A DNA stretch of 64,000 bases from an archaeon (GCA_043810775.1 JBDRNU010000025.1:32001-96000), one strand, 5' to 3'; shown: positions 3,605 through 50,899, counted from the first letter of the stretch. Notes: generated by a model from the sequence alone, not told the origin. Numbers and translations: made by a program.

Positions 3605-3646
3605 ATAACTCAAAATATTTATAAACTTCTTATTTCTAATAAACTT

Positions 3647-25076: not shown

Positions 25077-25184
25077 ATTTCAAGATAATTATATTTATAT
25101 GTCAAAAATTCCCTCTAATTTTGAATTTTTGAGCATAGTCAAAAACCTCCTTATGGACTTAATAAGTTTTTGATATTTAAAGAA

Positions 25185-25205
25185 TTGCTCAAAAAATTTG
25201 AGCAA
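25185..25205. promoter_or_regulatory. Palindromic operator upstream of the HTH-Nudix gene
   Basis: TTGCTCAAA-AAA-TTTGAGCAA; related (G/C)TCAAAAA half-sites at about 25100-25146. Confidence 0.6.
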
Positions 25206-25216
25206 ACTAGGGAAAA

Positions 25217-25816
25217 ATGGAGAAAGAAATTTTAGAATTATTTTTATTTAATAATAAGCTAAAGTTTAGCGAGATTGGAAAGCTCTTAAATATCAGAACA
25301 AATAAGCTGGCTTATCACTTGAATAATCTTGTTAAGAAAGGAATTTTAGTTAAAGATAAACAGTCTTATTTTCTATCAGATATTTCTGAAAGCTTAATTC
25401 CTTATTTATCTGATAAAAAAGCAGTACTTCCTGTTATTTTAGTTTTAATTGGAGATAAAAAGAAAGCTTATCTGTATAAGAGATCTAAGAGGCCGTTTAA
25501 AGGATATTTTTCCTTGCCTGGGGGAAGAATTCAGATTGGAGAAAGTATAAGTGATGCTACTAAAAGGATAATGAAGAAGTTTGGGATTAAGGCTAAATTA
25601 GGAAGAGTAAATTCTGTAAGTTTAGAGCATGTAAAGAAGAAGGGAAAAATTATCCATAGTTTTATGCTGATTTTTGTTACAGCTACTTCTAAAGATAATG
25701 TTGATTTTGTTAGTGTTGAAAGGAAAAAAAGGCAGATAATTAAGAGTGATTATTATCTTTTAAGGCATAAATCAGATGAAGAATTAGATATAAATACTAT
25801 TTTTTCAATTGATTGA
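25217..25816 (+). CDS. wHTH-Nudix fusion, putative transcriptional regulator
   Basis: N-terminal KFSEI...LAYHLNNLVKKG wHTH; C-terminal FSLPGGRIQIGES..ATKRI Nudix box lacking the catalytic EE. Confidence 0.75.
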   Translation: MEKEILELFLFNNKLKFSEIGKLLNIRTNKLAYHLNNLVKKGILVKDKQSYFLSDISESLIPYLSDKKAVLPVILVLIGDKKKAYLYKRSKRPFKGYFSLPGGRIQIGESISDATKRIMKKFGIKAKLGRVNSVSLEHVKKKGKIIHSFMLIFVTATSKDNVDFVSVERKKRQIIKSDYYLLRHKSDEELDINTIFSID

Positions 25817-25837
25817 ATTTCTTAGAAAGATTTATAT

Positions 25838-25856
25838 ACTATAGTTATACTATAGT
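25838..25856. promoter_or_regulatory. Operator of the MazF TA operon
   Basis: Two ACTATAGT palindromes (25838-45, 25849-56) between the TATA box and the antitoxin start. Confidence 0.55.
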
Positions 25857-25859
25857 CTT

Positions 25860-26090
25860 ATGGTAACAACAATTCAGCTTAATGAAAATGTAAAGAATGC
25901 TTTAGATAGATTAAAGTCAAGAAAGCAAACTTATGAAGATGTAATTTTAGAGCTTATGAGAGTTGCTGAACAATGTAAACGAGAGCAAGAACAATTGCTT
26001 ATTGAAGGTTATAAAGAAATGGCTGAAGAAAGCTTGAAGATTAATAAGGAATTTGAATCTATTGAAGAAGACTTTGATTGGAAATGGTAG
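25860..26090 (+). CDS. RHH-type antitoxin
   Basis: TTIQL...LK...TYEDVI RHH-like N-terminus and EGYKEMAEES acidic tail; overlaps mazF. Confidence 0.75.
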   Translation: MVTTIQLNENVKNALDRLKSRKQTYEDVILELMRVAEQCKREQEQLLIEGYKEMAEESLKINKEFESIEEDFDWKW

Positions 26091-26431
26091 AAATAAAAAG
26101 AGGAGATATAGTGCTTGTAAATTTAGAACCTGTAAAAGGAAGTGAACAAGGTGGAGTGAGGCCTTGTTTAATTATTCAAAATGATAAAGGGAATAAATAC
26201 AGCCCTCTGGCAATAATTGCACCCTTAACTTCAAAAGAGTTTACAAAAGAGTTTGCAACTAATGTATTTGTTTCTAAAGAAGATTCAAAATTAGACAAAG
26301 ACTCTACAATATTACTAAACCAAATAAAAACAATTGACAAGCGAAGAATAGTAAAAAAGATAAGCTTTTTAGACAGCGAAATTATGAAAAAAATTGACAT
26401 GGCTATTAAAATAAGCTTGGGTTTGGTGTAG
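26084..26431 (+). CDS. mazF: MazF/PemK-family endoribonuclease toxin
   Basis: KRGDIVLVNLEPVKGSEQGGVRPCLIIQND and QIKTIDKRR. Confidence 0.93.
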   Translation: MVEIKRGDIVLVNLEPVKGSEQGGVRPCLIIQNDKGNKYSPLAIIAPLTSKEFTKEFATNVFVSKEDSKLDKDSTILLNQIKTIDKRRIVKKISFLDSEIMKKIDMAIKISLGLV

Positions 26432-26442
26432 TTAATAATAGA

Positions 26443-27273
26443 ATGATAAAATTGAGAAACTTAAAGCTGAAAAATAGATATTTTCTTGCGCCTATGGCTG
26501 AAGTTAATGATATTGTTTTTAGATTGCTATGCAAGAAAGCTGGTGCAGGATTAACTTATACTGGAATGATTCATCCTTTATCCAGGCAAAAACTAGAATT
26601 AGATGATAAACCATCCTTGCAATTGTTTTCTTCAGATGAAAAAGGAATTAAAGAATTTATTAAAAAATATGATATGGAAGTCAGCTTATGGGATTTTAAT
26701 TTAGGATGTCCTGTTAAAAGGGCTGGCGAAGGGGGTTATGGGTATTTCTTACAGGACTTAAAGATGATTGAGAGAATTTTGAAAGTTATGCGAGAAAGCA
26801 CTAAAAAGCCGATTACAGTTAAGCTTAGAAAGTCAAGTCAGGCATTGAAAATAGTTAAGATAGCTGAAAAATATTGTGATGCAATTTCAATTCATCCAAG
26901 GACATTGCAACAAGGTTATTCTGGCAAGGCTGATATTAGTTTTGCTGAGGATATTAAGAAAAAATCAAAATTACCTATTATCTATTCTGGAGATGTAAAT
27001 GAAGCTAATGTTTTTGATTTATTAGAGAAATTTGATTTTGTTATGATTGGTAGAGAAGCAATTGGAAATCCTAATATTTTTGCTAAACTCACTAATAGTA
27101 AGGTTAGCTTAGGATTTAATGATTATCTTAAGTTAACTAAGAAATATAAACTTCCTTTTAAGCAGGTTAAATTTCAAGCAATTAATTTCACTAAAAAAAG
27201 GGGAAATGCGAAGAAGTTAAGAATGGAATTGATGAACGCTAAAAACATTGAAGATATTAGTAAAATCATATAA
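26443..27273 (+). CDS. dus: tRNA-dihydrouridine synthase
   Basis: LAPMA, DFNLGCP, PITVKLR, IHPRT, SGD and VMIGREAIGNPNIF. Confidence 0.9.
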   Translation: MIKLRNLKLKNRYFLAPMAEVNDIVFRLLCKKAGAGLTYTGMIHPLSRQKLELDDKPSLQLFSSDEKGIKEFIKKYDMEVSLWDFNLGCPVKRAGEGGYGYFLQDLKMIERILKVMRESTKKPITVKLRKSSQALKIVKIAEKYCDAISIHPRTLQQGYSGKADISFAEDIKKKSKLPIIYSGDVNEANVFDLLEKFDFVMIGREAIGNPNIFAKLTNSKVSLGFNDYLKLTKKYKLPFKQVKFQAINFTKKRGNAKKLRMELMNAKNIEDISKII

Positions 27274-27399: not shown

Positions 27400-28134
27400 T
27401 TACTCGTAACCTAGTTTAGCAATATCAATAGGCATGCTGACATTTTTTCTCTCAAATCTAGCCCTGTAAGTTCCATCTCCGTTTTCAGTTAAAACTACAT
27501 CAGCGTAGTCTTCCATTCCGAAAACTCCGCCAATATCTTCGCAACTTGTAACTGGAGTTTTTCTACCAGTATTTACAGCAACTACTGCCATTGCTTCTAA
27601 AGAACCAGATTGTCCGCCTAAAACTGCTAGCTTTAAGTCAGGATTTTGAACTAGCTCGTAAATTACTTCTTTTAGCATTTGACCTCTGCTTTTACAGATT
27701 TCATTAAAAGGAGTTGTTTTTCCACCATGATATGAATTCATAGTTGGATTTGCAACTAAATCTCTTACGTAAGTGTCAGTGTCTACTTTTCCGCTTTTTA
27801 CAGCATCTTCATTGTATACAATTCCATCGTCCCCAAGTCTTTCATCTTCCATAAATGGTCTTTTTTCAACACCATTTTCAGAAGGGTCAATTCCTAGAGC
27901 ACCTAAATAAATAGCATTTGCAGTATGGGCAGTTCTATTTAATTTATTAGCTCTAAGTAAGACATTTTTTGGTCCAACTTGGTTTTGTTTGCAGTATCCA
28001 CCTAGAGTTTTTCTTGAAGTGTCATAGATTCTTTTAGAAGAATCCCACTGCACTGTATCTTCTATTGTTACTCCATTTGCGTCTTTAGGAACAATTCCGT
28101 GCCTTGATATTCTTATTCTTTTTTCTTTAATCAT
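27400..28134 (-). CDS. Divergent histidine phosphatase superfamily protein
   Basis: RISRHG, NRTAHTA and EDERLG; the second His motif is replaced by GGQS. Start at 28134 has an AAGGAG SD (track start is 28161). Confidence 0.6.
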   Translation of the reverse strand: MIKEKRIRISRHGIVPKDANGVTIEDTVQWDSSKRIYDTSRKTLGGYCKQNQVGPKNVLLRANKLNRTAHTANAIYLGALGIDPSENGVEKRPFMEDERLGDDGIVYNEDAVKSGKVDTDTYVRDLVANPTMNSYHGGKTTPFNEICKSRGQMLKEVIYELVQNPDLKLAVLGGQSGSLEAMAVVAVNTGRKTPVTSCEDIGGVFGMEDYADVVLTENGDGTYRARFERKNVSMPIDIAKLGYE

Positions 28135-28185
28135 TTTACTTCTCCTTAATTTATTTAACATAATAGAGTATTTAAATCTTTCTAT

Positions 28186-28211
28186 TTGTCACTATTATTT
28201 AATGGTGACAA
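28186..28211. promoter_or_regulatory. Inverted repeat (operator or terminator hairpin)
   Basis: TTGTCACTATTA-TT-TAATGGTGACAA immediately after the stop at 28212 and before the next TATA box. Confidence 0.4.
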
Positions 28212-29957
28212 TTACTTGTTTTTTCCTTTAATCTTTCTTACAGTGCCATGATTCATTCTTAGCTCGAGTTCATCTCCGTTTTTCAGTACTTTTGTGGCTA
28301 TTTTTGTGCCTATTATGCAAGGTTTATTCATTTCTCGAGAGACTATAGCTGCATGGCTTGTAATCCCCCCTATATCAGTTATTACTGCTCTTGCTTTTCT
28401 CATTAGTTGGACAAAATCTGGACGAGTCATTGGAGTAATTAGAATTTCATCTTCTGAAATTGTTTCTTTATAGGGATTTAAAATTACTTTAGCTTTTCCT
28501 AAAATAATTGGATTTTCACCTCTACAAGCTATGATTCCTTGGAAATTTTCTGTTTCAGAATGTGAATTTTCTTTTAAGAGTATATTTTTAATTGGAATTA
28601 CATCATTTCCTGTAAAAAAGCTAATCTTATTTTTATTTTGAGATACTATAAAAATACCTTCTCTTCTTTCATTCAGTATATTTATATCAAGGTTTTTTTC
28701 AAGTAAATCTGGGAGTTCACTTATTTTTGCGTAAGATGTTAGTTTTGGTTCTAGTCCTGTTCTTTTTCCAAATTCTTCAAAAAATCTGAACATATGATGC
28801 AGCATCATTAGAACTATCTTTTTTCTTTCGTCTTTTATCCATGTTACATTTTGAATGTGCTGTAGTTCTTGGTCTATTTCTGAAGGTATTTTAAATTGTT
28901 TTATTATATTATTTCTTTTTTCTTTAATTGCTTCTGTATCTTCAAGTTCATTAAGTTCTTTTTTTAAATCAGTTAGGGTAAATTCTTTTAGTGCTCCTTT
29001 TATAAATTCAGTGAATTCTATTATTGAGAGTATTGTCCATTGCCCATATGAATTCTGCACCCAATAATAATTTTGCTGATGCTCTTGTATTGCTCTGAAT
29101 ATTTCTGGATAATTCATTTTTAGTTCTGCTAGATAATCTGCATAAGGTAGATTTTTTATAAGATTTCTTTGACGAGGGCTTTGAAAGTATTTTAAAATTA
29201 ATCTTAGGAAGTCTCTTCTTTCTCTTGCTACAAATGATAATTCAAATGGAAGTGTTAGAGTTGCAAATGATTCTTTTGCTTTTTTTTCATCACCAATTAG
29301 CTTTGTAATTTTTGGCATGTAATAATCATCTAAATAATGATTATATGGTTCAACTACTAGGCCTACTTCCCAGAATTTTCCTAGAACTTTGTTAAATTTA
29401 TTAAATTCTTCAACTAGTGCTTCATTTGATAAAGAATCAATTTTAATGAATTCTAGTCTTTTTAGGAATTTTTCTGTTTTTTCATAAATCTCTTCATATT
29501 CTTTTAAGAAGATTTCAATTTTTTCTGGATCTTCTTTTACTGCTTTTATTTGCGCTTTACAGCTTTCTAGTGATTCTTGGATACTTAGAATTTGTTTCAT
29601 GTAGTCTTTTTCTGTGTAAAATATTGAGTGTGATAAGCAGGGTTTGAAGTATTTTTCAGTGTCTGACATTTTTAAGATTCCTATTTCAAGAGTTAAAGGA
29701 AGGCCTGGAGCTTCGTCTGTCCAGAATTTTTCTGTTTTTATATAATTCATAAACTGGTCTTTATTAATTTCTTCTATTTCTTGTTTTTTATTTAGGAATT
29801 TATCAAGGTCTTGTTTTTTATAACGTCTATCTCCACGATTACCTATTCTAATTGCTTTTAAAATTCCAGAATTATCCCAGTTTCTTAGGGTTATTTTACT
29901 AACTCCAAGTAGTTTAGCTGCTGAACTTATATCAATTAAATCTGTATTTTTAACCAT
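28212..29957 (-). CDS. MerR/Xis-like HTH + unknown domain + swivelling phospho-His (PEP-utilizer mobile) domain
   Basis: N-terminal AAKLLGVSKITLRNWDNSG...GDRRY; C-terminal MTRPDF...TDIGGITSHAAIVSRE..KPCIIGTKIAT. Confidence 0.85.
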   Translation of the reverse strand: MVKNTDLIDISSAAKLLGVSKITLRNWDNSGILKAIRIGNRGDRRYKKQDLDKFLNKKQEIEEINKDQFMNYIKTEKFWTDEAPGLPLTLEIGILKMSDTEKYFKPCLSHSIFYTEKDYMKQILSIQESLESCKAQIKAVKEDPEKIEIFLKEYEEIYEKTEKFLKRLEFIKIDSLSNEALVEEFNKFNKVLGKFWEVGLVVEPYNHYLDDYYMPKITKLIGDEKKAKESFATLTLPFELSFVARERRDFLRLILKYFQSPRQRNLIKNLPYADYLAELKMNYPEIFRAIQEHQQNYYWVQNSYGQWTILSIIEFTEFIKGALKEFTLTDLKKELNELEDTEAIKEKRNNIIKQFKIPSEIDQELQHIQNVTWIKDERKKIVLMMLHHMFRFFEEFGKRTGLEPKLTSYAKISELPDLLEKNLDINILNERREGIFIVSQNKNKISFFTGNDVIPIKNILLKENSHSETENFQGIIACRGENPIILGKAKVILNPYKETISEDEILITPMTRPDFVQLMRKARAVITDIGGITSHAAIVSREMNKPCIIGTKIATKVLKNGDELELRMNHGTVRKIKGKNK

Positions 29958-30035
29958 TTTTAGCTAATTTTGTATATTTAAGTTGATATATATTTATAAT
30001 TAATTATTTATAAATGTTTCGATTTATACGAACTT

Positions 30036-31364
30036 TTAAAGAATCTTTATTACACCAGTATTAGCATCTACTTCAACTTCTTGGCCGTCCTTTAAGACTT
30101 GTGTAGCTATTTTAGTTCCTATAATACAAGGCTTTCTTAGTTCACGAGCTACTATAGCAGCGTGGCAAGTAATTCCACCTTCATCTGTTATTATAGCAGA
30201 AGCTTTTTTACAAGCTGTTATGATATTTGGACGTGTCATTTCACTAACTAAGACGTCTCCTTCTTGCATATTTTTTATTTTTTCCAAGTGATTGTCAGCG
30301 TTTCTATAGGAAAGCACTATAACCTTACCTTTTACTTTTCCTTTGTTTGCTATAGCTCCTTTTAATTCTTTTAAATCTAATTTTACAGATAAACTTTCTT
30401 TAATCTCTTTAGCTTTATTTCCTTCAAGTATATTTATTTCATTATTTTTTAAAATAAATATTGAGCTTTCTTTTCTTTCCTGTAATATGCTTTTTTCAAT
30501 TTTCTTTCCTGTTTCAAGCATTTTAGCTATTTCTTGATAATTGCAAAGTCTAAGCTCTTCTTTTGATATCTTAAGCCTGGTTTTTATTTCTTCTAGGATC
30601 AATTCATTATAATATAGGGCTTGCATCCAGATAAGCCTCATTCTAAATCTTTGCTCAGTTATATTTCTTAAGATATCTGAAATTAATACAGCTTCTCCTG
30701 GAATTTCAGAATTTTGAATTAAGCTCATTCTTTCTTTTTGATCTGCATCCTCTTCTTTGAATAAGACTTTTTTATTAAGATTTTTGTCTATTTTAGCTTC
30801 TTCTGACTTAATTGATTCTGCAAATGATTTTAAGAAAGGATTATTTTTTTCATTAATGATGAATCTCTTTTTAGGAGTAGTCAAAGCAATTATTATTCCA
30901 TCTATATCTTTTATTCCTTGACTGGTTAATAAATCTCTTAATTTTTTTTCTATTTTACTTATATTATGTGGTTGAGTTGCAATGTAGCTTATAAAACACT
31001 CTTTTATTCCCCTTCCAAAAGTATCTAGTAAGTTACTTAACTCTTCATTGCTTATTTCTTTGAAATCTTGTTCAGCTAGTTTTTGCATTTGGGTCACTAT
31101 CGAACTGTAAGCAGTTTTTACTTCTTTTTCAAATTTCTTGAATTTAGTAGTACTTCTGAAAAATTCATATCCTTCATTTTCAGCTTTTTTAAGTTCTTCT
31201 TCTTGAACATAAAATTCAGCATTAAATCCATTACCCCATACTAGTGCTTGGCTTATTCCAAATCCAAATCTTTCTTTTAGTCTTGGACCGTAATTTAGCA
31301 AGATACCATTTAAGTCATAGTAATTCTGATTTTCATCTGCCCACATTAAAATATATTTATTCAT
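30036..31364 (-). CDS. Unknown domain + swivelling phospho-His domain
   Basis: C-terminal TDEGGITCHAAIVARELRKPCIIGT...VEVDANTG. Confidence 0.85.
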   Translation of the reverse strand: MNKYILMWADENQNYYDLNGILLNYGPRLKERFGFGISQALVWGNGFNAEFYVQEEELKKAENEGYEFFRSTTKFKKFEKEVKTAYSSIVTQMQKLAEQDFKEISNEELSNLLDTFGRGIKECFISYIATQPHNISKIEKKLRDLLTSQGIKDIDGIIIALTTPKKRFIINEKNNPFLKSFAESIKSEEAKIDKNLNKKVLFKEEDADQKERMSLIQNSEIPGEAVLISDILRNITEQRFRMRLIWMQALYYNELILEEIKTRLKISKEELRLCNYQEIAKMLETGKKIEKSILQERKESSIFILKNNEINILEGNKAKEIKESLSVKLDLKELKGAIANKGKVKGKVIVLSYRNADNHLEKIKNMQEGDVLVSEMTRPNIITACKKASAIITDEGGITCHAAIVARELRKPCIIGTKIATQVLKDGQEVEVDANTGVIKIL

Positions 31365-32112
31365 TTTGTCCTCTTTCTGTATATTCTCTGCATCTAGCTC
31401 TTACTTTATTATCGCTTTCTTGCACATATGCACTCCATTTTTCATAATTTAGATACTTCAGTCTTCTTATACCTGAATAAGCATCTGCCCAGATTCTTTC
31501 ACCCAATTTTCTTCCTTGAACTATAAGTTCGTGAGCTTCTTGATCTCTAGCTGCTTTATCTCCAGCACGGTATTCCCATCCATTCATTGAATAGTATCTT
31601 GCATCTGCAGGTTTAAGGTCTTCTGGAGTTTTTCCTTGTTTTTTAGGAATAACTACTCTATTTACAAAGTCATTAGGGACTTCTGTGTCATCCATATCTT
31701 TTCCATAAACTTTATGTGTGAATTTTGTTCCTTCAAGAACTGTTTTGTATTTTCTTCCTTTTCTTTGACCTGCTTGTTTTTGATATTCTCCAAGAATATG
31801 TGTGTCTACTGCATAAACTTTATCAGCTTGTCTTAATTTTTCTCTTGTTGAAGCTTTTCTACCAGTATTCCTAAGGGCCTCTATGTCTAAGTTATATCTA
31901 CCTATACTTTCTTCTAAAGCTTGAATATGCTTATCTTCAATAGGATGGTTTTCTTTATTTCCTATATAGTCTGGATGACCCATGCCTTCGGCTGTAATCT
32001 CTAATTCACCTAAATGTGCTAGTTCATCTATTCTAGTCTGAGCTATAGCAGCAAGAGTTGTCCCTCTCCTACCCCCATAACATCCGACCAGAGCTTTGTA
32101 TTTGTTTTTCAT
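31357..32112 (-). CDS. Divergent LMW-PTP/arsenate-reductase-fold protein
   Basis: ALVGCYGGRRGTTLA P-loop-like start, EITAEG, HPIED..IQAL and LRQADKVYAVD follow the LMW-PTP pattern, but the CX5R motif is non-canonical. Confidence 0.5.
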   Translation of the reverse strand: MKNKYKALVGCYGGRRGTTLAAIAQTRIDELAHLGELEITAEGMGHPDYIGNKENHPIEDKHIQALEESIGRYNLDIEALRNTGRKASTREKLRQADKVYAVDTHILGEYQKQAGQRKGRKYKTVLEGTKFTHKVYGKDMDDTEVPNDFVNRVVIPKKQGKTPEDLKPADARYYSMNGWEYRAGDKAARDQEAHELIVQGRKLGERIWADAYSGIRRLKYLNYEKWSAYVQESDNKVRARCREYTERGQNE

Positions 32113-32223
32113 TTTATTTTTATACCTCTTAATAATAGTAACATCTTTATATATTTAAAAGCTTTTCCTTGTTTTTTGTGAATTATAGGGAAAGTTTATA
32201 TAGTATTCCATATTTTAACAATT

Positions 32224-33204
32224 ATGATAGATATTGATGTAAAAGATAGGAAAATATTGTATTATCTTTCCCAAGATGGAAGAGCTAGTAATACTCATCT
32301 TTCAAAGAAAGTTGGGTTGAGTAAAAATGCTGTTGCATATAGAATTGAGAGACTGAAAAAATTAAAAGTTATAAAACACTTTGCTTCAATTGTAAATCTT
32401 GGAAGCTTAAATTTCACTACTTTTACTGTTTTGTTAAAGTTTAATGAGGATATATATGAAAATAGTTCTATTATTGAGTATTTTAAAAGCCATGATTATG
32501 TTGATTGGATGGTCAGCTTGTCTGGGCAGTGGGACCTTTTTATTGAGTTTGTTTCCAGGGATTTTAACCATTTGACTGAGATAATAGAGGAAATTATAAG
32601 TTATTTTAAAGATACGCTTGAAACTTATGAGTTATCTTATTCTAGGGTGACTTTAAGAGTTGAGCATCTTGTAAAGGATTTTTACCAGGACTTAAAACTC
32701 AGTCCTATTAAGACTAGTGAGAGAACTAAGCAGATCTTTAAGCTAGATAAGATTGATAAGCAGATACTAGAAGTTCTAAATAAAGATTCTTCTCTTCCTT
32801 ATCTTAGTATTGCTGAGAAATTAAAGACCAGTATTGATGTTGTGAGATATAGGATTAGTAATTTAGTTAGTAAAGGAGTGATAGTTAAATTTTTCCCAGA
32901 AATATCCCTTCCCAAGTTAGGTTATACTGAGTATTTGTATAGTTTAAGATTAAAGAACTTATCTTCTGAAAAATTTAGGGATATTCAGAATGATATAAAA
33001 AATAATAACAATATAACTTATGCGTTTGTAGATAGTGTTAGTTTAAGGATTATTTTTGTCTGTGCATTTAAATCTCCAGAAGCTATAGATCATTTATCCA
33101 GAGGCTTAAGAAAAAAGTATATGGGCAGTATAGATAAACAGGAGTATCTTATAATTAAGGAACAGATGCTGTTTAATTTATTTCCCAGGGGATTAACTAA
33201 ATAA
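32224..33204 (+). CDS. Tandem-duplicated Lrp/AsnC-family regulator
   Basis: Two Lrp HTHs: DVKDRKILYYLSQDGR...YRIERL and LDKIDKQILEVLNKDS...YRISNL. Confidence 0.88.
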   Translation: MIDIDVKDRKILYYLSQDGRASNTHLSKKVGLSKNAVAYRIERLKKLKVIKHFASIVNLGSLNFTTFTVLLKFNEDIYENSSIIEYFKSHDYVDWMVSLSGQWDLFIEFVSRDFNHLTEIIEEIISYFKDTLETYELSYSRVTLRVEHLVKDFYQDLKLSPIKTSERTKQIFKLDKIDKQILEVLNKDSSLPYLSIAEKLKTSIDVVRYRISNLVSKGVIVKFFPEISLPKLGYTEYLYSLRLKNLSSEKFRDIQNDIKNNNNITYAFVDSVSLRIIFVCAFKSPEAIDHLSRGLRKKYMGSIDKQEYLIIKEQMLFNLFPRGLTK

Positions 33205-34932
33205 TTATTTTATGACTTTTATTAGCCCGTGATGCATTCTTATTTCAATTTCTTGACCTGATTGAAGAACTTTTGTAGCATTTTTAGTGCCTATAATGCA
33301 TGGTTTGTTCATTTCTCTTGAAACTATAGCTGCATGACAAGTTATTCCACCTTCATCTGTAATTACTGCTCTTGCTTTTCTCATTAGTGGGACGAAATCA
33401 GGACGAGTCATACTAGTAACTAGTATTTCATCTTCTGAAATTGTTTCTTTGTTAGGGTTGAGAATTACTTTTACTTTCCCCCGTATAATTGGTTCGCTGC
33501 CCCTACATGCGACGTTTCCCTCTATTTCATATACAGTCTTAGTCTCAATATTTTTTGAGACTAGTTTTTTAAATTCTAGAAATTCATTTCCTACTAGTAT
33601 GCTGAATTTGTTTGGTTTTTGAGATATAAACGAGCAGCCATTACGCCTTTGCTGTAAAGTGGAAATTGGCATTGAATTTTGGAGTATAAGGGGGATTTCT
33701 TCTGTTTTTGCATATCCTATTAGTTTTTCATTAATTCCTGTTCTTCTTGCAAATTCTTCTATAAATCCGTGTATATTATGTAGATATATTAAAATAACTC
33801 TTTTTCTATCATCTTTAATCCATGTAATATTTTTTATATATTCTAACTCCTTTACTACTTTTTCAGGGATTTTTAATTCTTTAATTAGCTCTTCTTGTTC
33901 TTTTTTAAGAGCATCAAAATTTGTTATTTTGTCTAGTTCTTGTCTAGCTTGTTCAATTGTAGATTCTTTTATAGAGTCCCTTAAAATATTCAGAAAATCA
34001 GTTACTTGCAAAATTGTTCTATCTAGATAATTGTTTTGAACCCAAAAAAATTCTCTTTGGTGTTTTAAAAGAGCTTCAAAGAATTTGGGTTCGTTAATTT
34101 TTATATATGTTAAGAAATCTTCGTTTGAATCATTCATAATTTTTTTTCTTTTTTTATTATTGTTTAGATATTTTATAATCATATTTAGAAGGCTTTTTCT
34201 TTCTTCAGCTGTGAATGAGGACTTTGTTGGAAGAGTCAGCAATGAAAAAGCATGTCTTGCTTTTTTCTTGTCACTTGCTTTTTTCTCAAAATCTAGGTAA
34301 TAAAGGTCTGTAAATGGGTCGTGTGATTCAACAAGTAAATTAATATTCCAAAATTCAATTAAAGGCTTGTTAAATAAATTAAATTCTTTTAATAGTTCTT
34401 CTGTTGAAAGTTCTTTGAGTCTAATAAATTCTAAACGAGTCATTGCTGTTTCAAATTTTTTAGATCGCTTAGCCCATTCTTTAAAGAAATTTTCTATTTT
34501 TTTTGGATTTTTATTTACTGCTTCAAACTGGGCCCTACAATTTTCAATAGATTCTGATAAACTTAAAGATTGGATTATAAAATCATTTTCTGATAAATGT
34601 GGGTAGAAGGTTACTCCTGGTTTAAACCAATTTTCCATTTTAGCGCCCTCTTTAATTCCTAGTTCTGCTGTAATAGGGAGTCCTGGAAGTTCTTGAAACC
34701 AGAAATCATTGTGTTTTACCCAGTTCCAGAAGAATTCTTTGTCAATTTCTGGACATTTTTCCTTATTTAAAAGCTTGTTTATATCCTCTTTTTTATAACG
34801 TCTATCTCCACGATTACCTATTCTTACTGCTTTTAAAGTCCCAGAATTATCCCAGTTTCTAAGGGTTTTCTTACTAATCCCTAGCTGTTCTGCAGCTGTA
34901 TTTATTCCAACTAATTCTTCATTTTTAGCCAT
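33205..34932 (-). CDS. MerR/Xis-like HTH + unknown domain + swivelling phospho-His domain (close paralog of 28212-29957)
   Basis: AAEQLGISKKTLRNWDNSG...GDRRY; TDEGGITCHAAIVSRE. Confidence 0.85.
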   Translation of the reverse strand: MAKNEELVGINTAAEQLGISKKTLRNWDNSGTLKAVRIGNRGDRRYKKEDINKLLNKEKCPEIDKEFFWNWVKHNDFWFQELPGLPITAELGIKEGAKMENWFKPGVTFYPHLSENDFIIQSLSLSESIENCRAQFEAVNKNPKKIENFFKEWAKRSKKFETAMTRLEFIRLKELSTEELLKEFNLFNKPLIEFWNINLLVESHDPFTDLYYLDFEKKASDKKKARHAFSLLTLPTKSSFTAEERKSLLNMIIKYLNNNKKRKKIMNDSNEDFLTYIKINEPKFFEALLKHQREFFWVQNNYLDRTILQVTDFLNILRDSIKESTIEQARQELDKITNFDALKKEQEELIKELKIPEKVVKELEYIKNITWIKDDRKRVILIYLHNIHGFIEEFARRTGINEKLIGYAKTEEIPLILQNSMPISTLQQRRNGCSFISQKPNKFSILVGNEFLEFKKLVSKNIETKTVYEIEGNVACRGSEPIIRGKVKVILNPNKETISEDEILVTSMTRPDFVPLMRKARAVITDEGGITCHAAIVSREMNKPCIIGTKNATKVLQSGQEIEIRMHHGLIKVIK

Positions 34933-35024
34933 TTTTTAATAATTTTAGCTTTTTTAGTTGGAATTAGTTGACCTTTGCATTTATAAATGTTTCGGTTAAA
35001 GGGTATTTAAAAAGAAGTTAGGGA

Positions 35025-36686
35025 CTACTTTTCTAGAATCCTAATTACTCCGTGATTTGCATCTACTTCAACTAAGTCACCTGTTTTTATTGTCCTAGTA
35101 GCAGATTTTGTACCTACTATGCATGGAACTCCAAGCTCGCGAGAAACAATAGCAGCATGGCAAGTAATTCCTCCTTCATCTGTGACTAGGGCAGAGGCTT
35201 TTTTCATAGCTGGTAGAAAGTCAGGAGTAGTCATACCTGTAATTAGTATCTGGCCTGGTTTTATTTTATGAGTATTAGCTAGAGTAATAGCTACAAAAGC
35301 TTCTCCAACTACTTTTCCAGGTGAAGCACTAATACCTTGCAGATCTTTTACATCTCCAATATGATCTCCCAAGATTTTTTCATGCTCTTTTGAGGCATGA
35401 ATTCCACTCCAGGTGGAGATTTTTCCATTGTTGTTAAAATAAAGAAAGTGTTCTTTTCTCTGGTTTATTTCGTTTTCATTTAACTCACCTTTTTGCAGTA
35501 TTGAAATTATTTCTTCAGGGAGACACCAATCTAGTAGTGATGCATGAACTTTTGAGCGTTTTGAGATTTCATCAAGAATCTGAAATTCATAATAATTGTA
35601 CTTCATCTGAACTTCTTTTCTAAAATCATGATAAATAAACAGCCTATCTAGGATTCTTAGGTATTCTGCAAGCTCTTTATCTTTTGATAAGTTATACTCC
35701 TTTTCAACAGCATTTTTTTCCTTTTTTGCTTTTTCTTTGTATTTTTGAATTTCATCAAGCTCATTTTGCACTTCTTTTTCTGATTTTTTATTACTTTTAA
35801 TTTCTGAGTCAAAGTATGAAAAATCTTTTCCTTTTTCTCTAGGCCAACCTAAATTTGTCCACCAGAATAGTTCAACTAGTTTTTGTATTCTTGCTTTAAA
35901 TTCTTGTGAACTATTAATAATTCTCCCAGATTTTAAATCTTTAATAGTTTCTAAAACCATTTTTCTTTCATCATTTAGATAAGAAAGCTGGCTTGGCATT
36001 GTAGATATATTATAAATTCTGATAAATTCTCTTTCAGTGTATTTCTCTTTTAGTTTGTTTTTTAAGATGTTCTTAATTTTTTCATTTATATCAATTGCCA
36101 GACTTTCATCAGTTCCATCAATTGCCATAACTATGCTATAAAATTCATAAATAATTTGAGCGAATTTTTTATAATGTAAAGCTAGTTCTGAGGTTTTCAT
36201 TTTTTCAACTTTTTCTTTAGGAGTGTTTTTAATAAATGCTAGAAGCTCTGCTGATTTTTCATCCCATGATTTGAAGAAATTGTTTTCAAAATCTTTTGAG
36301 CTTAGGAATTTTTCAATTACTTTTTTACCTATTTCATACAAATTATTTTTATCATAGTACCAGAACAAGGTGCTATTTTCAAAGTAATTCATTAAATATT
36401 TAGCATTAATATCAAAATATTTTTTAATCCCACTTCTTAACGCTTCTAGTGGGTGTATTGATTGATGATAGCTTGTACCGCTTCGAATATATTCTAGCCA
36501 TTCTATCTTCTTTTGTTTTGATTTTTCTAAGAATTCTAGGAGGTCTTGTTCTCTGTACTTTCTATCTCCTCTTGCACCTACTCTTACTGCTTTAAGCTTT
36601 CCCTCTCGATCCCATTTTCTTAAAGTTATGGGTTTGATGCCTAGCTTTTTAGCTGCTTCTTGTAAATTTAGTAGATTTTCAGCCAT
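35025..36686 (-). CDS. MerR/Xis-like HTH + unknown domain + swivelling phospho-His domain
   Basis: EAAKKLGIKPITLRKWDREG...GDRKY; TDEGGITCHAAIVSRE. Confidence 0.85.
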   Translation of the reverse strand: MAENLLNLQEAAKKLGIKPITLRKWDREGKLKAVRVGARGDRKYREQDLLEFLEKSKQKKIEWLEYIRSGTSYHQSIHPLEALRSGIKKYFDINAKYLMNYFENSTLFWYYDKNNLYEIGKKVIEKFLSSKDFENNFFKSWDEKSAELLAFIKNTPKEKVEKMKTSELALHYKKFAQIIYEFYSIVMAIDGTDESLAIDINEKIKNILKNKLKEKYTEREFIRIYNISTMPSQLSYLNDERKMVLETIKDLKSGRIINSSQEFKARIQKLVELFWWTNLGWPREKGKDFSYFDSEIKSNKKSEKEVQNELDEIQKYKEKAKKEKNAVEKEYNLSKDKELAEYLRILDRLFIYHDFRKEVQMKYNYYEFQILDEISKRSKVHASLLDWCLPEEIISILQKGELNENEINQRKEHFLYFNNNGKISTWSGIHASKEHEKILGDHIGDVKDLQGISASPGKVVGEAFVAITLANTHKIKPGQILITGMTTPDFLPAMKKASALVTDEGGITCHAAIVSRELGVPCIVGTKSATRTIKTGDLVEVDANHGVIRILEK

Positions 36687-36741
36687 TTTAACTTGTTATA
36701 AGTTATTATAAGTATATATAAATCTTTTGGTTAAAGGGTAT

Positions 36742-37338
36742 TTACATTGATGAAATTATTTCATCAGAATTAGAGATAATACAAATATTTGGAAAGATAT
36801 TTTTTATAACAAAGTCGTGCAGTTCCTGGCTCATACTTGCGCAGCAGTCTTCTACAACTATGACTTGATGGTTTTCATCTGCAGCTCTTCGTGCAACTGC
36901 TTCAACTACCCAGTTTGTTGCTACTCCTGTTAAAAGTAGTGTTTGTATGCCTTGAATTTGCTTTTCAAAATCAGGGTTTGTGTATGGGCTTATTCTTGAT
37001 TTTGAGATTACTGGTTCATTATCAAGAGGTTTTAGCTCTTCGTGGATTTCAGCTCCCCAGGTCCCTTTTAACATAGCTTTGAATTGGGGAGTCATTTTTT
37101 GAAGTGGCTCAAAGCTGGATTCAACTTCTGGGTAGCCTTCAGTGTATTCTACTTTTACAAAAACTACTTTTACTCCTAAAGAGCGAGCTTTTTCAAGTAG
37201 TTTCTTTGTGTTTTGTATGGCATTCTGCTTTTTTGCGTGTTCCATAATGCCCATTCCAGCTACTTTGCCTTTTTCGTGGATCATGTCATTTTGCATATCT
37301 AGAACCAATAGAGCTGTATTTTCTTTATTTACTTCCAT
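36742..37338 (-). CDS. Isochorismatase-family cysteine hydrolase
   Basis: ALLVLDMQND, GTWGAEI, VISKSR, TGVATNWVVE and VEDCCAS; the usual catalytic Cys position reads WV, so activity may be atypical. Confidence 0.85.
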   Translation of the reverse strand: MEVNKENTALLVLDMQNDMIHEKGKVAGMGIMEHAKKQNAIQNTKKLLEKARSLGVKVVFVKVEYTEGYPEVESSFEPLQKMTPQFKAMLKGTWGAEIHEELKPLDNEPVISKSRISPYTNPDFEKQIQGIQTLLLTGVATNWVVEAVARRAADENHQVIVVEDCCASMSQELHDFVIKNIFPNICIISNSDEIISSM

Positions 37339-37375: not shown

Positions 37376-38806
37376 TTAGAGAATTCTTACTATACCTTTA
37401 TCTGCGTCTATTTCAACTAGGTCGCCTGTTTTTAGGATTTGAGAAGCTATTTTAGTGCCGACTATGCATGGAATTTTTAGTTCACGAGAGACAATGGCTG
37501 CATGACAGGTGACTCCTCCTTCATCTGTGATTATAGCTCCTGCAAACCTCATTAGTGGTGCAAATTCTGGACGAGTCATTCCAGTGACTAGGATTGTCCC
37601 TTGCTTAAAATCAGTTGCTTTAAATGGGTCTCTTACGATTCTTACTATTCCTTGAACTTTGCCTGGATAAGCTGACTGTCCTGTAATTAACTTATCTGAT
37701 GATTTTTGTTTTTCTTGGGAAAGGTAGATTCTATCTATTTGTTGTTTTATTGTGTCAAAGGTATTATATTCTTCTTCTATTTGCCCGTTATAATATGCTA
37801 TTATAGAGTATCCTTTTAGTCTTTTCTTAATATAATTTTTATTTTCTTTTAAGTAGCTTATTCCTTGAATTAGCTCTTCAAAATTATAATAATATATTAA
37901 GTCTTTTTCTAAACCAGCTTCATTAAACATTTTTTGAGCTACTCTAAACTGAATTGTGATTCCTTTGGAAATTGGGTCTTTTCTTGAGTCTCTTATATTA
38001 ATTATCTCTTGTATGTAATGGACAAGTTTTTTTTCATCCTGGTTTAATTTATTTAAGAATTCTTGAAATTGATTTAGTTTTTCTTCTGATGCTTCTGGAA
38101 TTTCTGAGTCTTCATATTTTTCTTTTAATAGGTCTTGGACTATTTCTGGGCTTTCAACGTTTTTATAATCTGCAAACTGGTATTGGAGTTTTTCTGAGAC
38201 TATTTGCCAGTTTTTGTGTTTTTTTGTAATTTCCATAGCAGCTAATTGCCTTTTTTTGTCAAATGAATCACTTATTGGAGTGGTAGCTTGGTCCCAGATT
38301 TGATTTAGCCTTTGTTTTGTAATTGGTATTTTAAGTTCTTTTATTAGTTTAATACACATTGACTTGTCAAATTGAGTTGCAAACCAGGCTAGGCAGTTTA
38401 AGTGACGTACAGAATCAATTATTTCTTTAAGATAGTTTAGAATTGTATCATAATTATTTTTTTGGATAAAGTCATAAGTAAGTTTATTGTATATTTTATC
38501 TATTTTATCACTAAATTCTTTGAAAATTTTCTTTCTTTCTTGTAATTTATTTGGATTTTTCCAGTATTGCCTGAAAAAATCTTCAGCCATATTATTATAA
38601 GTTGTTTCTGACATGAATACAATTCCTTCGTCTTGTTTCATTGTTATTAGAAAAGTCATGTTTAAAGGCAGTGTGTAATATAATTCATGAAAATTAGGGG
38701 CAAATCCTCCTGCTCCGTTTGCTAGCATTGTTACATTATGTACAGGTGGGTAGAATCTATGGCCTCTCATTATTTCTAGAAACTTATCCATTAGTGTAGG
38801 CTTCAT
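37376..38806 (-). CDS. Unknown domain + swivelling phospho-His domain
   Basis: TDEGGVTCHAAIVSRE; ATGA overlap with the upstream gene. Confidence 0.85.
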   Translation of the reverse strand: MKPTLMDKFLEIMRGHRFYPPVHNVTMLANGAGGFAPNFHELYYTLPLNMTFLITMKQDEGIVFMSETTYNNMAEDFFRQYWKNPNKLQERKKIFKEFSDKIDKIYNKLTYDFIQKNNYDTILNYLKEIIDSVRHLNCLAWFATQFDKSMCIKLIKELKIPITKQRLNQIWDQATTPISDSFDKKRQLAAMEITKKHKNWQIVSEKLQYQFADYKNVESPEIVQDLLKEKYEDSEIPEASEEKLNQFQEFLNKLNQDEKKLVHYIQEIINIRDSRKDPISKGITIQFRVAQKMFNEAGLEKDLIYYYNFEELIQGISYLKENKNYIKKRLKGYSIIAYYNGQIEEEYNTFDTIKQQIDRIYLSQEKQKSSDKLITGQSAYPGKVQGIVRIVRDPFKATDFKQGTILVTGMTRPEFAPLMRFAGAIITDEGGVTCHAAIVSRELKIPCIVGTKIASQILKTGDLVEIDADKGIVRIL

Positions 38807-40341
38807 TTTTTCATACCTATTTTTCTAATTATTCCAGTTGAACCGTGAATTTCAACTATTTCACCGTTTTTAAGCACTTTTGTACCAATCTTAGTGCCTA
38901 CAACACAAGGAACTCCAAGCTCGCGAGAAACAATAGCAGCATGGCAAGTAATTCCCCCCTCGTCTGTTATGATTGCTGAAGCCAGCCTCATAGCTGGAAC
39001 AAAATCAGGAGTAGTCATTGTAGCCACTAGAATTTCACCTTTTTGCATTTCATTGACTTTGCTAGGATCTAGCAAGACTCTCACATTACCTAGAGCATTT
39101 CCAGGGTTGGCTGTTGTTCCTTTAATTTCTGTTACAGTTTGGTCTATTTTTTCTACAAATGCATCAAATATCTTGTCTGCTTCTTGTCCAGAATATGCTG
39201 AAAACTTTCCTTGGATGCAGTAGAAAAATCCTTTTTCATTTCTTCTTTCAAGCTCTTTTTTATCAATTTTGTTTTTAAGCAGAGCTTCTTTTAGTTCATT
39301 AAATAAGAGCATGTTAAGTAATTGCCTTGGAATGTTAAGTCTTTTTGCTGTTTCTTTTCTCCAATTAATCATGTGATAATGAGATATAGTGTATTTCTCT
39401 TTTTTAAAGTCAAGAAGATAGCCTGAATCAGCGATTTCTTGGAATAATCTAACTATTTCTTTATGGAGTTTAAGTTCTGTTATAATTTGATTCTTTTTTG
39501 CTTTAATATTTTCAGAGTATTTTTCAAGTTCGCTTATCTTATCTTGCACTTTAATTTTGCTTTTTAATCTGTCTTTTATAACAGTTAGAAAATAATCCAA
39601 ATCCCATATTGCACTTCCATAATCATATGGTACCCACGAGAATTTTTTTTCATGCTCTAAGAGTTTTTTGTAAAATGGTTGAAAATTTTTTAAAGATTCT
39701 TTAATTTTCTTTATTTCTTTAATATCAAATACCTTTTCTAGGGCTTTATTTCCTTTGACTTCTTTTATTAGCTTAAATAATTCTAGTTCTTCTTTATTGA
39801 CAAAGCTTGGAGTATCAGGTGTTATCAGTGTTGTTATATATGAGTCTAGTATTTTTTTATCATTTATTTTATCTTGGATTTCTTTTTTCAGCTCTTCTAC
39901 AAATCCAAACCTTAGTCCCCAACTAACCATTTCACTATATGGGTATGCTTCAAGGTATAACTTATAGTATTCCCTGTATATTTCAAATAGTTCTTCATTA
40001 CTCTTCTTTGTCAAATCTTTATTTGAAATTTCAAGCGTAAACTTATTCAGTGTTCCCACTTTTTCTTTGAAGTTTTTTATAAGATTTTTTACTGAAAGTT
40101 TATTGCTCTTTGCATTTTTGATTACTGTGTTTTCAAATTTACTAAAGAAATCTTCACGAAAAACCCAGTACATTCTTCCTTTTTTAAATGCTACTACTAA
40201 GTCTCTTAAACTTTCTCCTAAGACTTCTGCTACGTTTGAGGTTGCTCCTTCCATTATTGGTAGAGCTAGTATCATATTAACATCATTATTGCTTCTTTCT
40301 TGGGCTATTACTAATCCTTTTGGGCTTATTTTTATTTTCAT
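38803..40341 (-). CDS. Unknown domain + swivelling phospho-His domain
   Basis: TDEGGITCHAAIVSRE; ATGA overlap with the upstream gene. Confidence 0.85.
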   Translation of the reverse strand: MKIKISPKGLVIAQERSNNDVNMILALPIMEGATSNVAEVLGESLRDLVVAFKKGRMYWVFREDFFSKFENTVIKNAKSNKLSVKNLIKNFKEKVGTLNKFTLEISNKDLTKKSNEELFEIYREYYKLYLEAYPYSEMVSWGLRFGFVEELKKEIQDKINDKKILDSYITTLITPDTPSFVNKEELELFKLIKEVKGNKALEKVFDIKEIKKIKESLKNFQPFYKKLLEHEKKFSWVPYDYGSAIWDLDYFLTVIKDRLKSKIKVQDKISELEKYSENIKAKKNQIITELKLHKEIVRLFQEIADSGYLLDFKKEKYTISHYHMINWRKETAKRLNIPRQLLNMLLFNELKEALLKNKIDKKELERRNEKGFFYCIQGKFSAYSGQEADKIFDAFVEKIDQTVTEIKGTTANPGNALGNVRVLLDPSKVNEMQKGEILVATMTTPDFVPAMRLASAIITDEGGITCHAAIVSRELGVPCVVGTKIGTKVLKNGEIVEIHGSTGIIRKIGMKK

Positions 40342-41390
40342 TTTGCTTTTTTTAGTATTTTAATTATACCTTTATCTGCATCTACTTCTACTATATCATT
40401 ATCATTTAAAACTTTTGTGGCTATCTTAGTTCCTATAATGCATGGTATTTTCATCTCTCGGGCTACAATTGAGGCATGACAAGTTATACCTCCTTCATCT
40501 GTTACTATTGCAGCAGCTTTTTTTAAATATTTGACTATTTCAGGACGAGTCATTGGTGCTACTAAGATAAAATCTTTTTTGTTTTTGAAGATTTTTTTGT
40601 AATTTCCATAATCTTTTTCTGTTATTTTTATTACTTGGCCTTTTGCGAATCCAGTGTAAGCTGAATTTCCTGATATTTGGTTCTTTTCACTAAGTTTTGG
40701 TTCTTGATTTACTAAGAAATTTTCAATTTCTTCTGCTTCTTTATTCAAGTAAATATTGAATTGATTATTAATAATTGTAATTGCTAGGGGTCTATTTTCT
40801 GTTATTTTTATTTTATTTCCTTTTAATATATTAATAATTTCTTCTGAGGTAGCTCTTTCAAGTTGTTTAATCTTATATTCTAATTTTTTTTGTATATACT
40901 TTATTATTTTATTATATGCTCTCCATATTAGGTCTACAAATTTGGAAAGTTTTATTCTTATTTCTGGTAGCTCTTTTAATAATTTGGAGTCATTTGTGTC
41001 AAAATATTCTTCTGTGTAAAATAAGTATGTTTTATAAAGTTCAAGGCATTGGTTATTTAGAAAGTTCATTCCTTTAATTGCTTTATCTTTATCTAGTTTT
41101 GAATTAATGAAACTCTTTACTTTCTGCTTGTTATTTTTTATATATTTCAAGCTATCTGAATTTATTTTATTTATTAGTTTTTCATCAGAAAGCTTTATTT
41201 TTGAAGCTTGTTCATCCCAGACTTGAAAATTTTTATTTTGAAAAACTACCAAATTAGGTGTTTTGTTTGCAATAATCTTGTAATATGGATTATTAATATG
41301 TGCATGGCAGGCATATTCCCATGATATGACTGGAGTTATTGAAAACACTTCATATTTACTGAATTTATGTGTTTTTAGAAGGGTTATCAT
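40338..41390 (-). CDS. Short unknown domain + swivelling phospho-His domain
   Basis: TDEGGITCHASIVARE; ATGA overlap with the upstream gene. Confidence 0.85.
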   Translation of the reverse strand: MITLLKTHKFSKYEVFSITPVISWEYACHAHINNPYYKIIANKTPNLVVFQNKNFQVWDEQASKIKLSDEKLINKINSDSLKYIKNNKQKVKSFINSKLDKDKAIKGMNFLNNQCLELYKTYLFYTEEYFDTNDSKLLKELPEIRIKLSKFVDLIWRAYNKIIKYIQKKLEYKIKQLERATSEEIINILKGNKIKITENRPLAITIINNQFNIYLNKEAEEIENFLVNQEPKLSEKNQISGNSAYTGFAKGQVIKITEKDYGNYKKIFKNKKDFILVAPMTRPEIVKYLKKAAAIVTDEGGITCHASIVAREMKIPCIIGTKIATKVLNDNDIVEVDADKGIIKILKKAK

Positions 41391-47499: not shown

Positions 47500-47578
47500 A
47501 TGAATGCTCCTGCCAGCTCGCTTTCCCACTCGTTATTTAATTAATAAGATTGCCTCGTGAAAAAGCTCGGGATTCGAA
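47500..47578 (-). repeat. Interrupted copy of the tRNA-Glu 3' end
   Basis: 47500-47514 equals 47647-47661 (15/15) and 47568-47578 equals 47661-47671 (11/11), separated by a 54-nt hairpin-forming insert. Confidence 0.7.
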
Positions 47579-47651
47579 ACCATCACTTTCAAAATACTCT
47601 CCCCAAAACCAGTAAGGGTCATATAGGATTTCGCAAGCTTAATCCTATGAA

Positions 47652-47724
47652 TGCTCCTGCCGGGATTCGAACCCGGATTTCAAGCGCGAGAGGCTCGCGT
47701 CCTTAGCCGTTAGACTACAGGAGC
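47652..47724 (-). tRNA. tRNA-Glu(CTC)
   Basis: GCTCCTG...CGAGC-CTCTCGC-GCTTG...GGTTCGAATCCCGGCAGGAGCA cloverleaf; no encoded CCA and no intron. Confidence 0.95.
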
Positions 47725-50846: not shown

Positions 50847-50873
50847 AATATTAAAGTGTTTATAAATCTTACT

Positions 50874-50899
50874 ATAACTCTCCAATTTTAGAGAGTTAT
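50874..50899. promoter_or_regulatory. Inverted repeat in the divergent promoter, candidate TrmB operator
   Basis: ATAACTCTC-N8-GAGAGTTAT. Confidence 0.55.

Follow-up and report, generated by a model that had tools for sequence, protein, structure and literature searches.

The small-molecule dikinase HpeHI is divided over two polypeptides, HpeI, which provides the ATP-grasp domain, and HpeH, which combines a RIF-binding domain with a swivel domain, and these separate proteins are described as making transient contact (PMC12167813). The same pairing of a helical substrate-binding domain with a C-terminal swivel, and with the ATP-grasp on another polypeptide, is reported for CreH and for PpsA of phenylphosphate synthase, and HpeH by itself is described as able to shuttle phosphate between substrates (PMC12167813). 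An archaeal assembly (GCA_043810775.1) contains, within a 64,000-nucleotide stretch of contig JBDRNU010000025.1 (32001-96000; the whole of this stretch is called the window), three genes whose products appear, from their sequences and a structural model, to be the HpeH-type half of such a two-component dikinase to which a DNA-binding domain has been added at the N-terminus. They look like an undescribed gene switch made of enzyme parts. Besides the added domain, they differ from HpeH in their DPANN archaeal host, in a presumed ATP-grasp partner that is fused to three substrate-binding and swivel units (modules) and is not stand-alone, and in the number of paralogous modules, a dozen in each cluster.

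The host is a tiny groundwater archaeon with a genome of about 1 Mb (26 contigs, 80% complete, 70% A+T), and the source records of its close relatives carry the name Woesearchaeota. Coordinates below are window positions, and features lie on the minus strand unless a plus is given. Gene 1 (28212-29957) encodes a protein of 581 amino acids (aa) consisting of a helix-turn-helix (HTH) domain, a rifampin phosphotransferase (RPH)-like substrate-binding domain and a swivel domain with its histidine, as seen from the open reading frame (ORF), Pfam and an AlphaFold2 (AF2) model. The ORF and Pfam matches give the same architecture for gene 2 (33205-34932; 575 aa) and for gene 3 (35025-36686; 553 aa), the latter belonging to another module clade in a phylogenetic tree, and the proteins of genes 2 and 3 are only about 29% identical. 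A preliminary description of this DNA had placed the three ORFs at exactly these coordinates, and had proposed an HTH and a phosphohistidine swivel in one chain; the domain search agrees, with HTH_17 and PF00391 in all three proteins. The middle section of about 400 aa, to which that description assigned no identity and for which Pfam gives no family, is an RPH/HpeH-type substrate-binding domain rather than an anonymous linker. A DNA-binding-type domain and a sensor-type domain are found in one polypeptide by Pfam and VIA. The three HTH_17 matches of the genome are all in genes 1-3, and 12 of its 14 PF00391 matches sit in the one cluster that contains these genes.

The swivel domain (PEP-utilizers, PF00391) occupies residues 501-568 of the gene 1 protein (28254-28457; E 8.5e-22), 499-566 of gene 2 (33235-33438; E 1.4e-23) and 475-546 of gene 3 (35049-35264; E 2.5e-26). 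Its catalytic histidine is intact within the motif T[CS]HAAIV, as H535 of 581 (codon 28353-28355), H533 of 575 (33334-33336) and H510 of 553 (35157-35159), and the GGxT[SC]HAAI motif stands no more than about 50 residues from the C-terminus in all three proteins, as it does in RPH-Lm. The preceding domain (residues ~63-465 of gene 1; 28563-29771) is a helical substrate-binding domain of the RPH type, resembling the RIF-binding domain, and was recognised from the AF2 model, Foldseek and VIA. The model was built on 19 sequences and has a mean pLDDT of 90.1 and a pTM of 0.82. Its six top Foldseek matches are all Listeria RPH, with an E value of 8.7e-15 and a TM score of 0.54 by query for 5fbt, and VIA-align sets residues 63-577 on residues 321-867 of RPH-Lm (5FBT, 5FBU, 5HV1), which comprise the entire RIF-binding and swivel domains, with Z 20.1 and rmsd 5.1 over 435 aligned residues. 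Unlike this top structural match, to which identity is about 15%, the proteins of genes 1-3 have an added HTH and no ATP-grasp in the chain, Pfam finding no PPDK_N domain in them.

A profile-to-PDB alignment, which is independent of the model, extends back to RPH residue 609 and sets the family residues K375-D376-E-R378-K379 on R666-E667-Y-P-K670 of RPH. Of these, R666 and E667 are reported to contact the transferred phosphate and to be indispensable to the second phosphotransfer, and their alanine mutants lose rifampin inactivation (PMC4844700). The R-E-x-x-K of RPH is kept as K/H-D-x-R-K, with H, D and K in gene 3, the changes of E to D and R to K/H at the R666 and E667 positions being conservative substitutions and not identities. 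The D-x-R-K part lies at 28821-28832 in gene 1, where the full motif is K-D-E-R-K, at 33802-33813 in gene 2 and at 35616-35627 in gene 3, where it is H-D-F-R-K. All 19 aligned sequences share D376, R378, K379 and the catalytic histidine without exception. The motif D-x-[RK]-K can be found in every one of the three HTH proteins; of the eight other module units of the window that were aligned, three have it. In NCBIfam the RPH equivalog NF041857 gives 43.2 and 81.2 bits, far under its cut-off of 999, and the three proteins, the 512-aa module and two further uncharacterised proteins are all below every cut-off; the models matched, in part and below threshold, are those of PEP synthase, RPH and two prodigiosin ligases, PigC and RedH.

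As an RPH/HpeH-type domain with its phosphotransfer residues has been kept, the proteins are probably still phosphotransferases, and the phosphotransfer predicted from these residues would make them trigger enzymes and not passive phospho-acceptors. Trigger enzymes, or enzyme-derived one-component regulators, include the ROK repressors, BirA and PutA, and the likeness lies in a DNA-binding domain that is fused to a paralogue of an enzyme of metabolism, the substrate of that enzyme serving as signal. A regulatory role for the three fusion proteins is supported, and we give an even chance to a specific version of it, namely that each is a one-component regulator of the trigger-enzyme type, derived from an HpeH-type half, charged in trans and binding DNA in dependence on its ligand, on its phosphohistidine (His~P) or on both. 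The same pocket could also belong to an autoregulated enzyme or a regulator that responds to ligand only, in which the RPH-like domain senses the ligand, His~P is without effect and the swivel is solely catalytic. ROK-type repressors, in which a kinase fold is associated with DNA binding and small-molecule sensing, offer a comparison; conserved pocket residues suit an active enzyme, and the architecture and the exchange of DNA-binding domains described below suit any ligand-sensing one-component regulator. We consider this explanation unlikely. The swivel and its histidine motif are invariant in all DNA-binding-domain-fused members examined (19 of 19, with the histidine also in a separate set of 15), whereas a protein that only senses ligand would be free to lose them, but this speaks only weakly against it because catalysis alone would preserve the swivel.

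The HTH domain scores above the Pfam HTH_17 cut-off of 27 bits in all three proteins, at residues 9-58 of gene 1 (29784-29933; E 1.6e-9), 10-57 of gene 2 (34762-34905; E 7.4e-10) and 5-56 of gene 3 (36519-36674; E 7.5e-10), and in each the match is overlapped by MerR (PF00376; 30.0-30.7 bits, cut-off 28.2) and MerR_1 (PF13411). In the gene 1 model this MerR-like winged HTH superposes through residues 5-59 on DNA-bound BldC (6ama_A; Z 8.7, rmsd 1.8, 54 of 54 residues). The domain ends at about residue 59 and a short low-confidence linker leads to the RPH-like domain from residue 63, of which residues 66-125 are formed of short helices and strands. Neither the coiled-coil dimerisation helix nor the C-terminal effector domain of MerR is present in the model, and the winged HTH fold without the MerR coiled coil is common to genes 1-3 and to BldC and other small MerR-like proteins. 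Whereas BldC is a stand-alone protein of 68 residues, the domain here forms the N-terminus of an enzyme-like protein of 553-581 aa with two further domains.

The HTH motif quoted in the preliminary description is genuine: none of the 15 aligned N-termini with an HTH deviates from L-G, T-L-R-x-W-D or R-x-G-x-R-x-D-R-x-Y, and the wing is basic. This invariant DNA-contact signature argues against the idea that the HTH does not bind DNA but acts as a protein-protein adaptor, or is the remnant of a mobile-element excisionase-type domain, on what would be ordinary HpeH-like enzyme components. That idea is favoured by NCBIfam, where the HTH falls just under the cut-off for the 'excise' domain (28.4 against 28.8 bits) and is close to the N-terminus of IS607 transposase. 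Neither an integrase nor a transposase was seen when genes of the cluster were scanned, the clade keeps its HTH down to about 43% identity, and the idea is very improbable.

Near-identical HTH_17 domains are fused elsewhere to a type I methylase-like protein (L097), a resolvase (L071), a DNA methyltransferase (L067), a sensor histidine kinase with a receiver domain (L149) and a cytidylyltransferase (L078). In PADLOC the HTH matches mad1 and the N-terminus of a type II methyltransferase; the modules have no match to any defence family, the sole match being that of the HTH to mad1. Such an HTH might do nothing more than place the module on the DNA or nucleoid, where it would phosphorylate a DNA-associated substrate and have no role in transcription; DNA ends, modified bases, chromatin proteins and DNA-bound compounds are all conceivable. 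The methylase-like, resolvase and methyltransferase fusions, the PADLOC matches and the kept catalytic site would suit this DNA-tethered kinase. Against it, the RPH-type pocket binds small molecules in all the characterised members covered by the two relevant reports (PMC4844700; PMC12167813), the genes have operator-like repeats at their own promoters, and the other domains found in place of the HTH are of types typical of sequence-specific regulators, which together make it distinctly improbable.

The occurrence of several DNA-binding domain types on the same module is a pattern typical of one-component regulators. A Cro/C1-type HTH_26 is fused to the module at a Falkowbacteria locus and in L006 (E 2.5e-13 and 5e-14), and the Falkowbacteria XRE-fused gene is at the head of an array of module genes. 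An ArsR-like winged HTH is found in P0140 and P0018 (PDB YgaV, E 2.4e-4) and probably also in a Micrarchaeota module protein. A fourth type may be ribbon-helix-helix (RHH)-like, to judge from AF2 secondary structure and a dimer prediction: the N-terminus of P0073, P0077, P0083 and P0133 is modelled as an extended segment followed by two helices. Sequence comparison lends this no support (best PDB profile E 0.16, no Pfam match), and Atlas matches to RHH_1 clusters at 0.85 are leads only. The predicted homodimer of this N-terminus scores 0.39 against 0.00 for the best control, passing a mark that 21 of 30 solved pairs and 0 of 23 single chains attain; the runs have at least 95% of their contacts in common, with a partner pLDDT of 72, and the N-terminal strands pair (8:8, 7:9). 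Since strands also pair in this way in RHH dimers, the high score may be owed to a resemblance to RHH dimers of known structure.

The module family as a whole is very large in DPANN archaea and in bacteria of the Candidate Phyla Radiation (CPR), with 2810 cluster representatives at E <=1e-30, and occupies about 2% of the roughly 1-Mb genome studied here. About 30 HTH-fused relatives, excluding the window's own proteins, were found in metagenomic data (14 of 24 and 16 of 41 matches in two protein-collection searches), one of them named Parcubacteria, and their source-database labels are 'MerR family transcriptional regulator', 'excisionase family DNA binding protein' and 'phosphohistidine swiveling domain-containing protein'. 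A full-length alignment scan of genome contigs gave 65 related loci, none of which covers query residues before 60, and an HTH profile found no HTH there. An ATP-grasp is present in 34 of the 65 and at least five module ORFs in 15, and some loci (L001, L007, L014, L029) have 7-11 module ORFs beside a single stand-alone ATP-grasp. Arrays of this kind are a common sight in both DPANN archaea and CPR bacteria, and they take up much of genomes that measure only about 1 Mb. At L039:7572-9476, from Taylorbacteria, the same module has an N-terminal cytidylyltransferase-like domain (PF01467, E 2.8e-16) and no DNA-binding domain, which may be a hint on the substrate chemistry.

In a FastTree phylogeny of 83 modules, from which the DNA-binding domains had been trimmed off, the fused modules cluster in coherent clades. 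Genes 1 and 2 belong to clade A (support 1.0), which is sister to two Cro/C1 (XRE)-fused proteins (0.96), gene 3 belongs to clade B (0.99), and a third clade contains P0161 and a protein from metagenome locus L070. The latter, of 551 aa and encoded on a 279-kb metagenome contig, is the sole orthologue whose genomic context was obtained. At L070 (3132-4022, 6789-7526, 7536-8420) a His_Phos_1 gene and the gene for a second protein, which has an R-H-G motif, each stand immediately before a module gene; between the two lies a TrmB regulator gene whose product is 24% identical to the TrmB protein of the window.

Each of the three genes has its own promoter-like element upstream. The motif CGAAACATTTATAAAT, resembling a B recognition element (BRE) and TATA box, occurs with 0 mismatches before gene 1 (30006-30021) and gene 2 (34979-34994) and with 3 mismatches before gene 3 (36714-36729), which bears out the BRE/TATA-like element previously claimed for each HTH gene. 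With 12 copies at up to 3 mismatches in the window against 2.87 expected, CGAAACATTTATAAAT is taken to be the general BRE/TATA-type promoter of the organism. A second element, the 15-mer AAATACCCTTTAACC, is more restricted, being exact at genes 2 and 3, despite the low identity of their proteins given above, and having just these two copies genome-wide with <=1 mismatch. It abuts the BRE of gene 2 (34994-35008), where it is a candidate activator site, and that of gene 3 (36729-36743), where it overlaps the stop of the isochorismatase gene. A k-mer comparison of six cluster promoters found nothing in common beyond BRE/TATA and the 15-mer.

Two of the genes have direct repeats of 10-bp period in the stretch from TATA to ATG, ACTTATAA twice before gene 3 (36696-36713), a candidate operator, and CAACTAA twice before gene 2 (34954-34970), and each is unique in the genome as such a pair. 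Before the L070 orthologue, AACTTATAC, which is related to the gene 3 repeat, is present three times; AGTATAAGTT occurs there twice direct and once inverted right before the ATG, with only 3 exact copies in 20 kb, and AACTTATA is common to these copies and to the gene 3 repeats. BldC binds direct repeats head to tail (PMC5859096), and phased direct repeats are found upstream of genes 2 and 3 and of the L070 orthologue. An inverted ACTTATA pair before a small winged-HTH gene at C15:93176 was judged coincidental.

The three genes are part of a cluster of about 20 kb, whose sole ATP-grasp domain is that of a 1667-aa protein (42456-47459). At its N-terminus this protein has a PPDK_N domain (residues 16-324; 46488-47414; E 2.2e-97). 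Three module/swivel units come next, and at the end there is an additional, truncated half swivel (residues 1619-1662; 42456-42600) that starts at a second CHAAIV motif and is an internal partial duplication. The cluster resembles the split arrangement of HpeHI, CreHI and PpsAB, and the 1667-aa protein is presumed to be the phosphoryl donor for genes 1-3. Elsewhere in the genome there are two more PPDK_N matches. Contig C7 encodes a full PEP synthase, and a 500-aa ORF on contig C22 (~25100-26600, minus) matches ATP-grasp weakly (95 bits) and has a C-terminus like a degenerate swivel. One more HTH-less module is on contig C3 (~72600-74100, plus).

From the 1667-aa gene onwards the cluster consists of four translationally coupled HTH-less modules (37376-42454; individually 41387-42454, 40338-41390, 38803-40341 and 37376-38806), a gene for an isochorismatase-family hydrolase identified by Pfam (36742-37338), which is the last of this long module operon, gene 3, gene 2, a tandem Lrp/AsnC-type regulator (32224-33204, plus; Pfam), a 251-aa protein (31357-32112), a fifth HTH-less module of 442 aa (30036-31364) coupled to the 251-aa gene upstream, and gene 1. 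Each HTH-less module gene either shares 4-8 nt with the gene upstream of it or lies 1 nt away from that gene, and the coupling that the preliminary description contrasted with the separate promoters of the HTH genes can be read directly from the coordinates.

The proposed mechanism would run as follows. The ATP-grasp of the 1667-aa protein would pyrophosphorylate or phosphorylate the swivel histidine (H535, H533 or H510) in trans, after which the swivel would dock on the helical domain and hand the phosphate to a bound small molecule via K/H-D-x-R-K. Ligand occupancy and the resulting level of His~P would set the conformation or oligomeric state of the protein, and this would set the binding of the HTH to the 10-bp-phased repeats between its own TATA and ATG; other array promoters would probably be bound too. 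For genes 1-3 we infer that the proteins bind DNA, are charged in trans and are catalytically active, and that these activities are coupled; the phosphorylation state of the histidine may control DNA binding. In PRD regulators of the LicT and MtlR type, histidine phosphorylation driven by the phosphotransferase system (PTS) reports substrate flux and controls a transcription regulator. The preliminary description had drawn on this analogy when it proposed control of DNA binding by ligand or histidine phosphorylation. Its interpretation is backed in part, by the architecture, the conservation, the other types of DNA-binding domain, the genes' own promoters and the operator-like repeats, but the comparison with PRD proteins is conceptual and not one of homology, because no PRD family is among the Pfam matches of the three proteins (E <=0.01). 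Moreover, the phosphate is proposed to come from ATP via the ATP-grasp, not from PEP via EI and HPr, and the phosphohistidine to be on a swivel domain inside the regulator itself. Literature searches found neither a description of dikinase components fused to a DNA-binding domain nor a dikinase-derived trigger enzyme. A paper on the CPR resistome (PMC8651080) reportedly mentions rifampin phosphotransferase.

A number of observations weigh against a regulatory role of this kind. Because HTH_17 also occurs on DNA-acting enzymes and on a histidine kinase, a fused HTH alone is no proof of a transcription factor, and the kept catalytic site is equally compatible with a plain enzyme. The fusion is also rare. 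It was found in 0 of 400 other genomes of the phylum, as the single match there is an HTH-DNA methyltransferase, a different fusion, and in only one of 80 HTH-seeded metagenome loci, L070, most of the others being stand-alone small HTH_17 genes; in 18 of the 80 an ORF of at least 199 aa runs from the HTH match, and among these only L070 matches the module. No ATP-grasp is present within 10 kb on either side of the L070 orthologue. The proportions in the tree, where HTH_17 is carried by 16 of 16 members of clade A and by 16 members of clade B with three lacking it, are biased, because the sequences were gathered with HTH-bearing queries; the persistence of the HTH at lower identity noted above is unaffected by that bias. 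Gene 1 has no exact phased repeat, and the repeat motifs of the other genes were picked after looking, in a genome of 70% A+T in which an exact 7-mer is repeated at 9-11 bp in 17 of 594 upstream regions and an 8-mer in 7 of 594. Finally, AAATACCCTTTAACC could equally belong to the neighbouring Lrp/AsnC or TrmB regulators.

If the proteins are nevertheless regulators, they would form a sensor class in which the phosphocarrier domain of an enzyme is wired directly to a DNA-binding domain, and the fusions would give a handle on a large uncharacterised module family. DPANN and CPR organisms are thought to live by scavenging. One proposal holds that dikinases of the HpeHI type phosphorylate diffusing substrates and so trap them (PMC12167813). 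Taken together, scavenging and substrate trapping suggest that the ligands of the HTH-fused members, which might be found through operators and reporters, could show what these cells take up. A wider and more speculative proposal, which we think doubtful, is that DPANN archaea and CPR bacteria possess an ATP-driven, PTS-like phosphorelay in which one ATP-grasp charges up to a dozen modules that trap metabolites, those fused to DNA-binding domains serving as flux sensors. Each HpeH-like module would trap a different scavenged metabolite by phosphorylation, and the presence of a ligand would drain His~P from the fused modules and so directly set promoter occupancy.

Proteins with folds resembling low-molecular-weight (LMW) phosphatases or PTS-IIB, and members of the histidine-phosphatase superfamily, could be further relay or eraser components of such a system. 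The candidates are encoded at 31357-32112 and 49166-49867 (plus) of the window and at 3132-4022 and 7536-8420 of L070. The first of these is the 251-aa protein of the cluster, whose LMW-phosphatase, arsenate-reductase or PTS-IIB-like fold is a lead only; Atlas gives TM scores of 0.51-0.54 by query to LMWPc clusters, and a C-Y-G-G-R-R-G-T loop is located near the N-terminus, while Pfam, NCBIfam and PDB sequence searches gave no match. The second is a His_Phos_1 gene (histidine-phosphatase superfamily) that is overlapped by a gene for an APH-like kinase, the pair extending over 48138-49867 (plus). Beyond it, a TrmB-family regulator (50130-50885) adjoins the module cluster.

Several further features were observed around the cluster. 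A perfect palindrome, TTGTCAC-N12-GTGACAA (28186-28211), directly follows the stop codon of gene 1, and just downstream of this gene lies an orphan gene for a 253-aa protein (27400-28161) with a BRE/TATA-like element of its own. A word-indexed search gave no homologue of this protein, and it matched no family; an 'SRHG' near its N-terminus resembles histidine-phosphatase motifs by eye only. On the other side, a tRNA-Glu(CTC) gene (47652-47724) is separated from the 1667-aa gene by fragments resembling a T-arm and 3' end (47500-47724 including the tRNA), which could be the remnant of an integration site, although a full second copy of the tRNA-Glu 3' end was not found in the window. A MazF/PemK-type toxin gene is present at 26078-26431 (plus; E 6.4e-34). 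The region is flanked by genes for two giant secreted or surface proteins, a subtilisin-like protein of 2524 aa with poly-Gly tracts and a C-terminal transmembrane segment (16672-24246, plus), and a protein whose ORF (57986-64000, plus) contains repeated beta-helix-like units and, at more than 2005 aa, continues past the end of the window.

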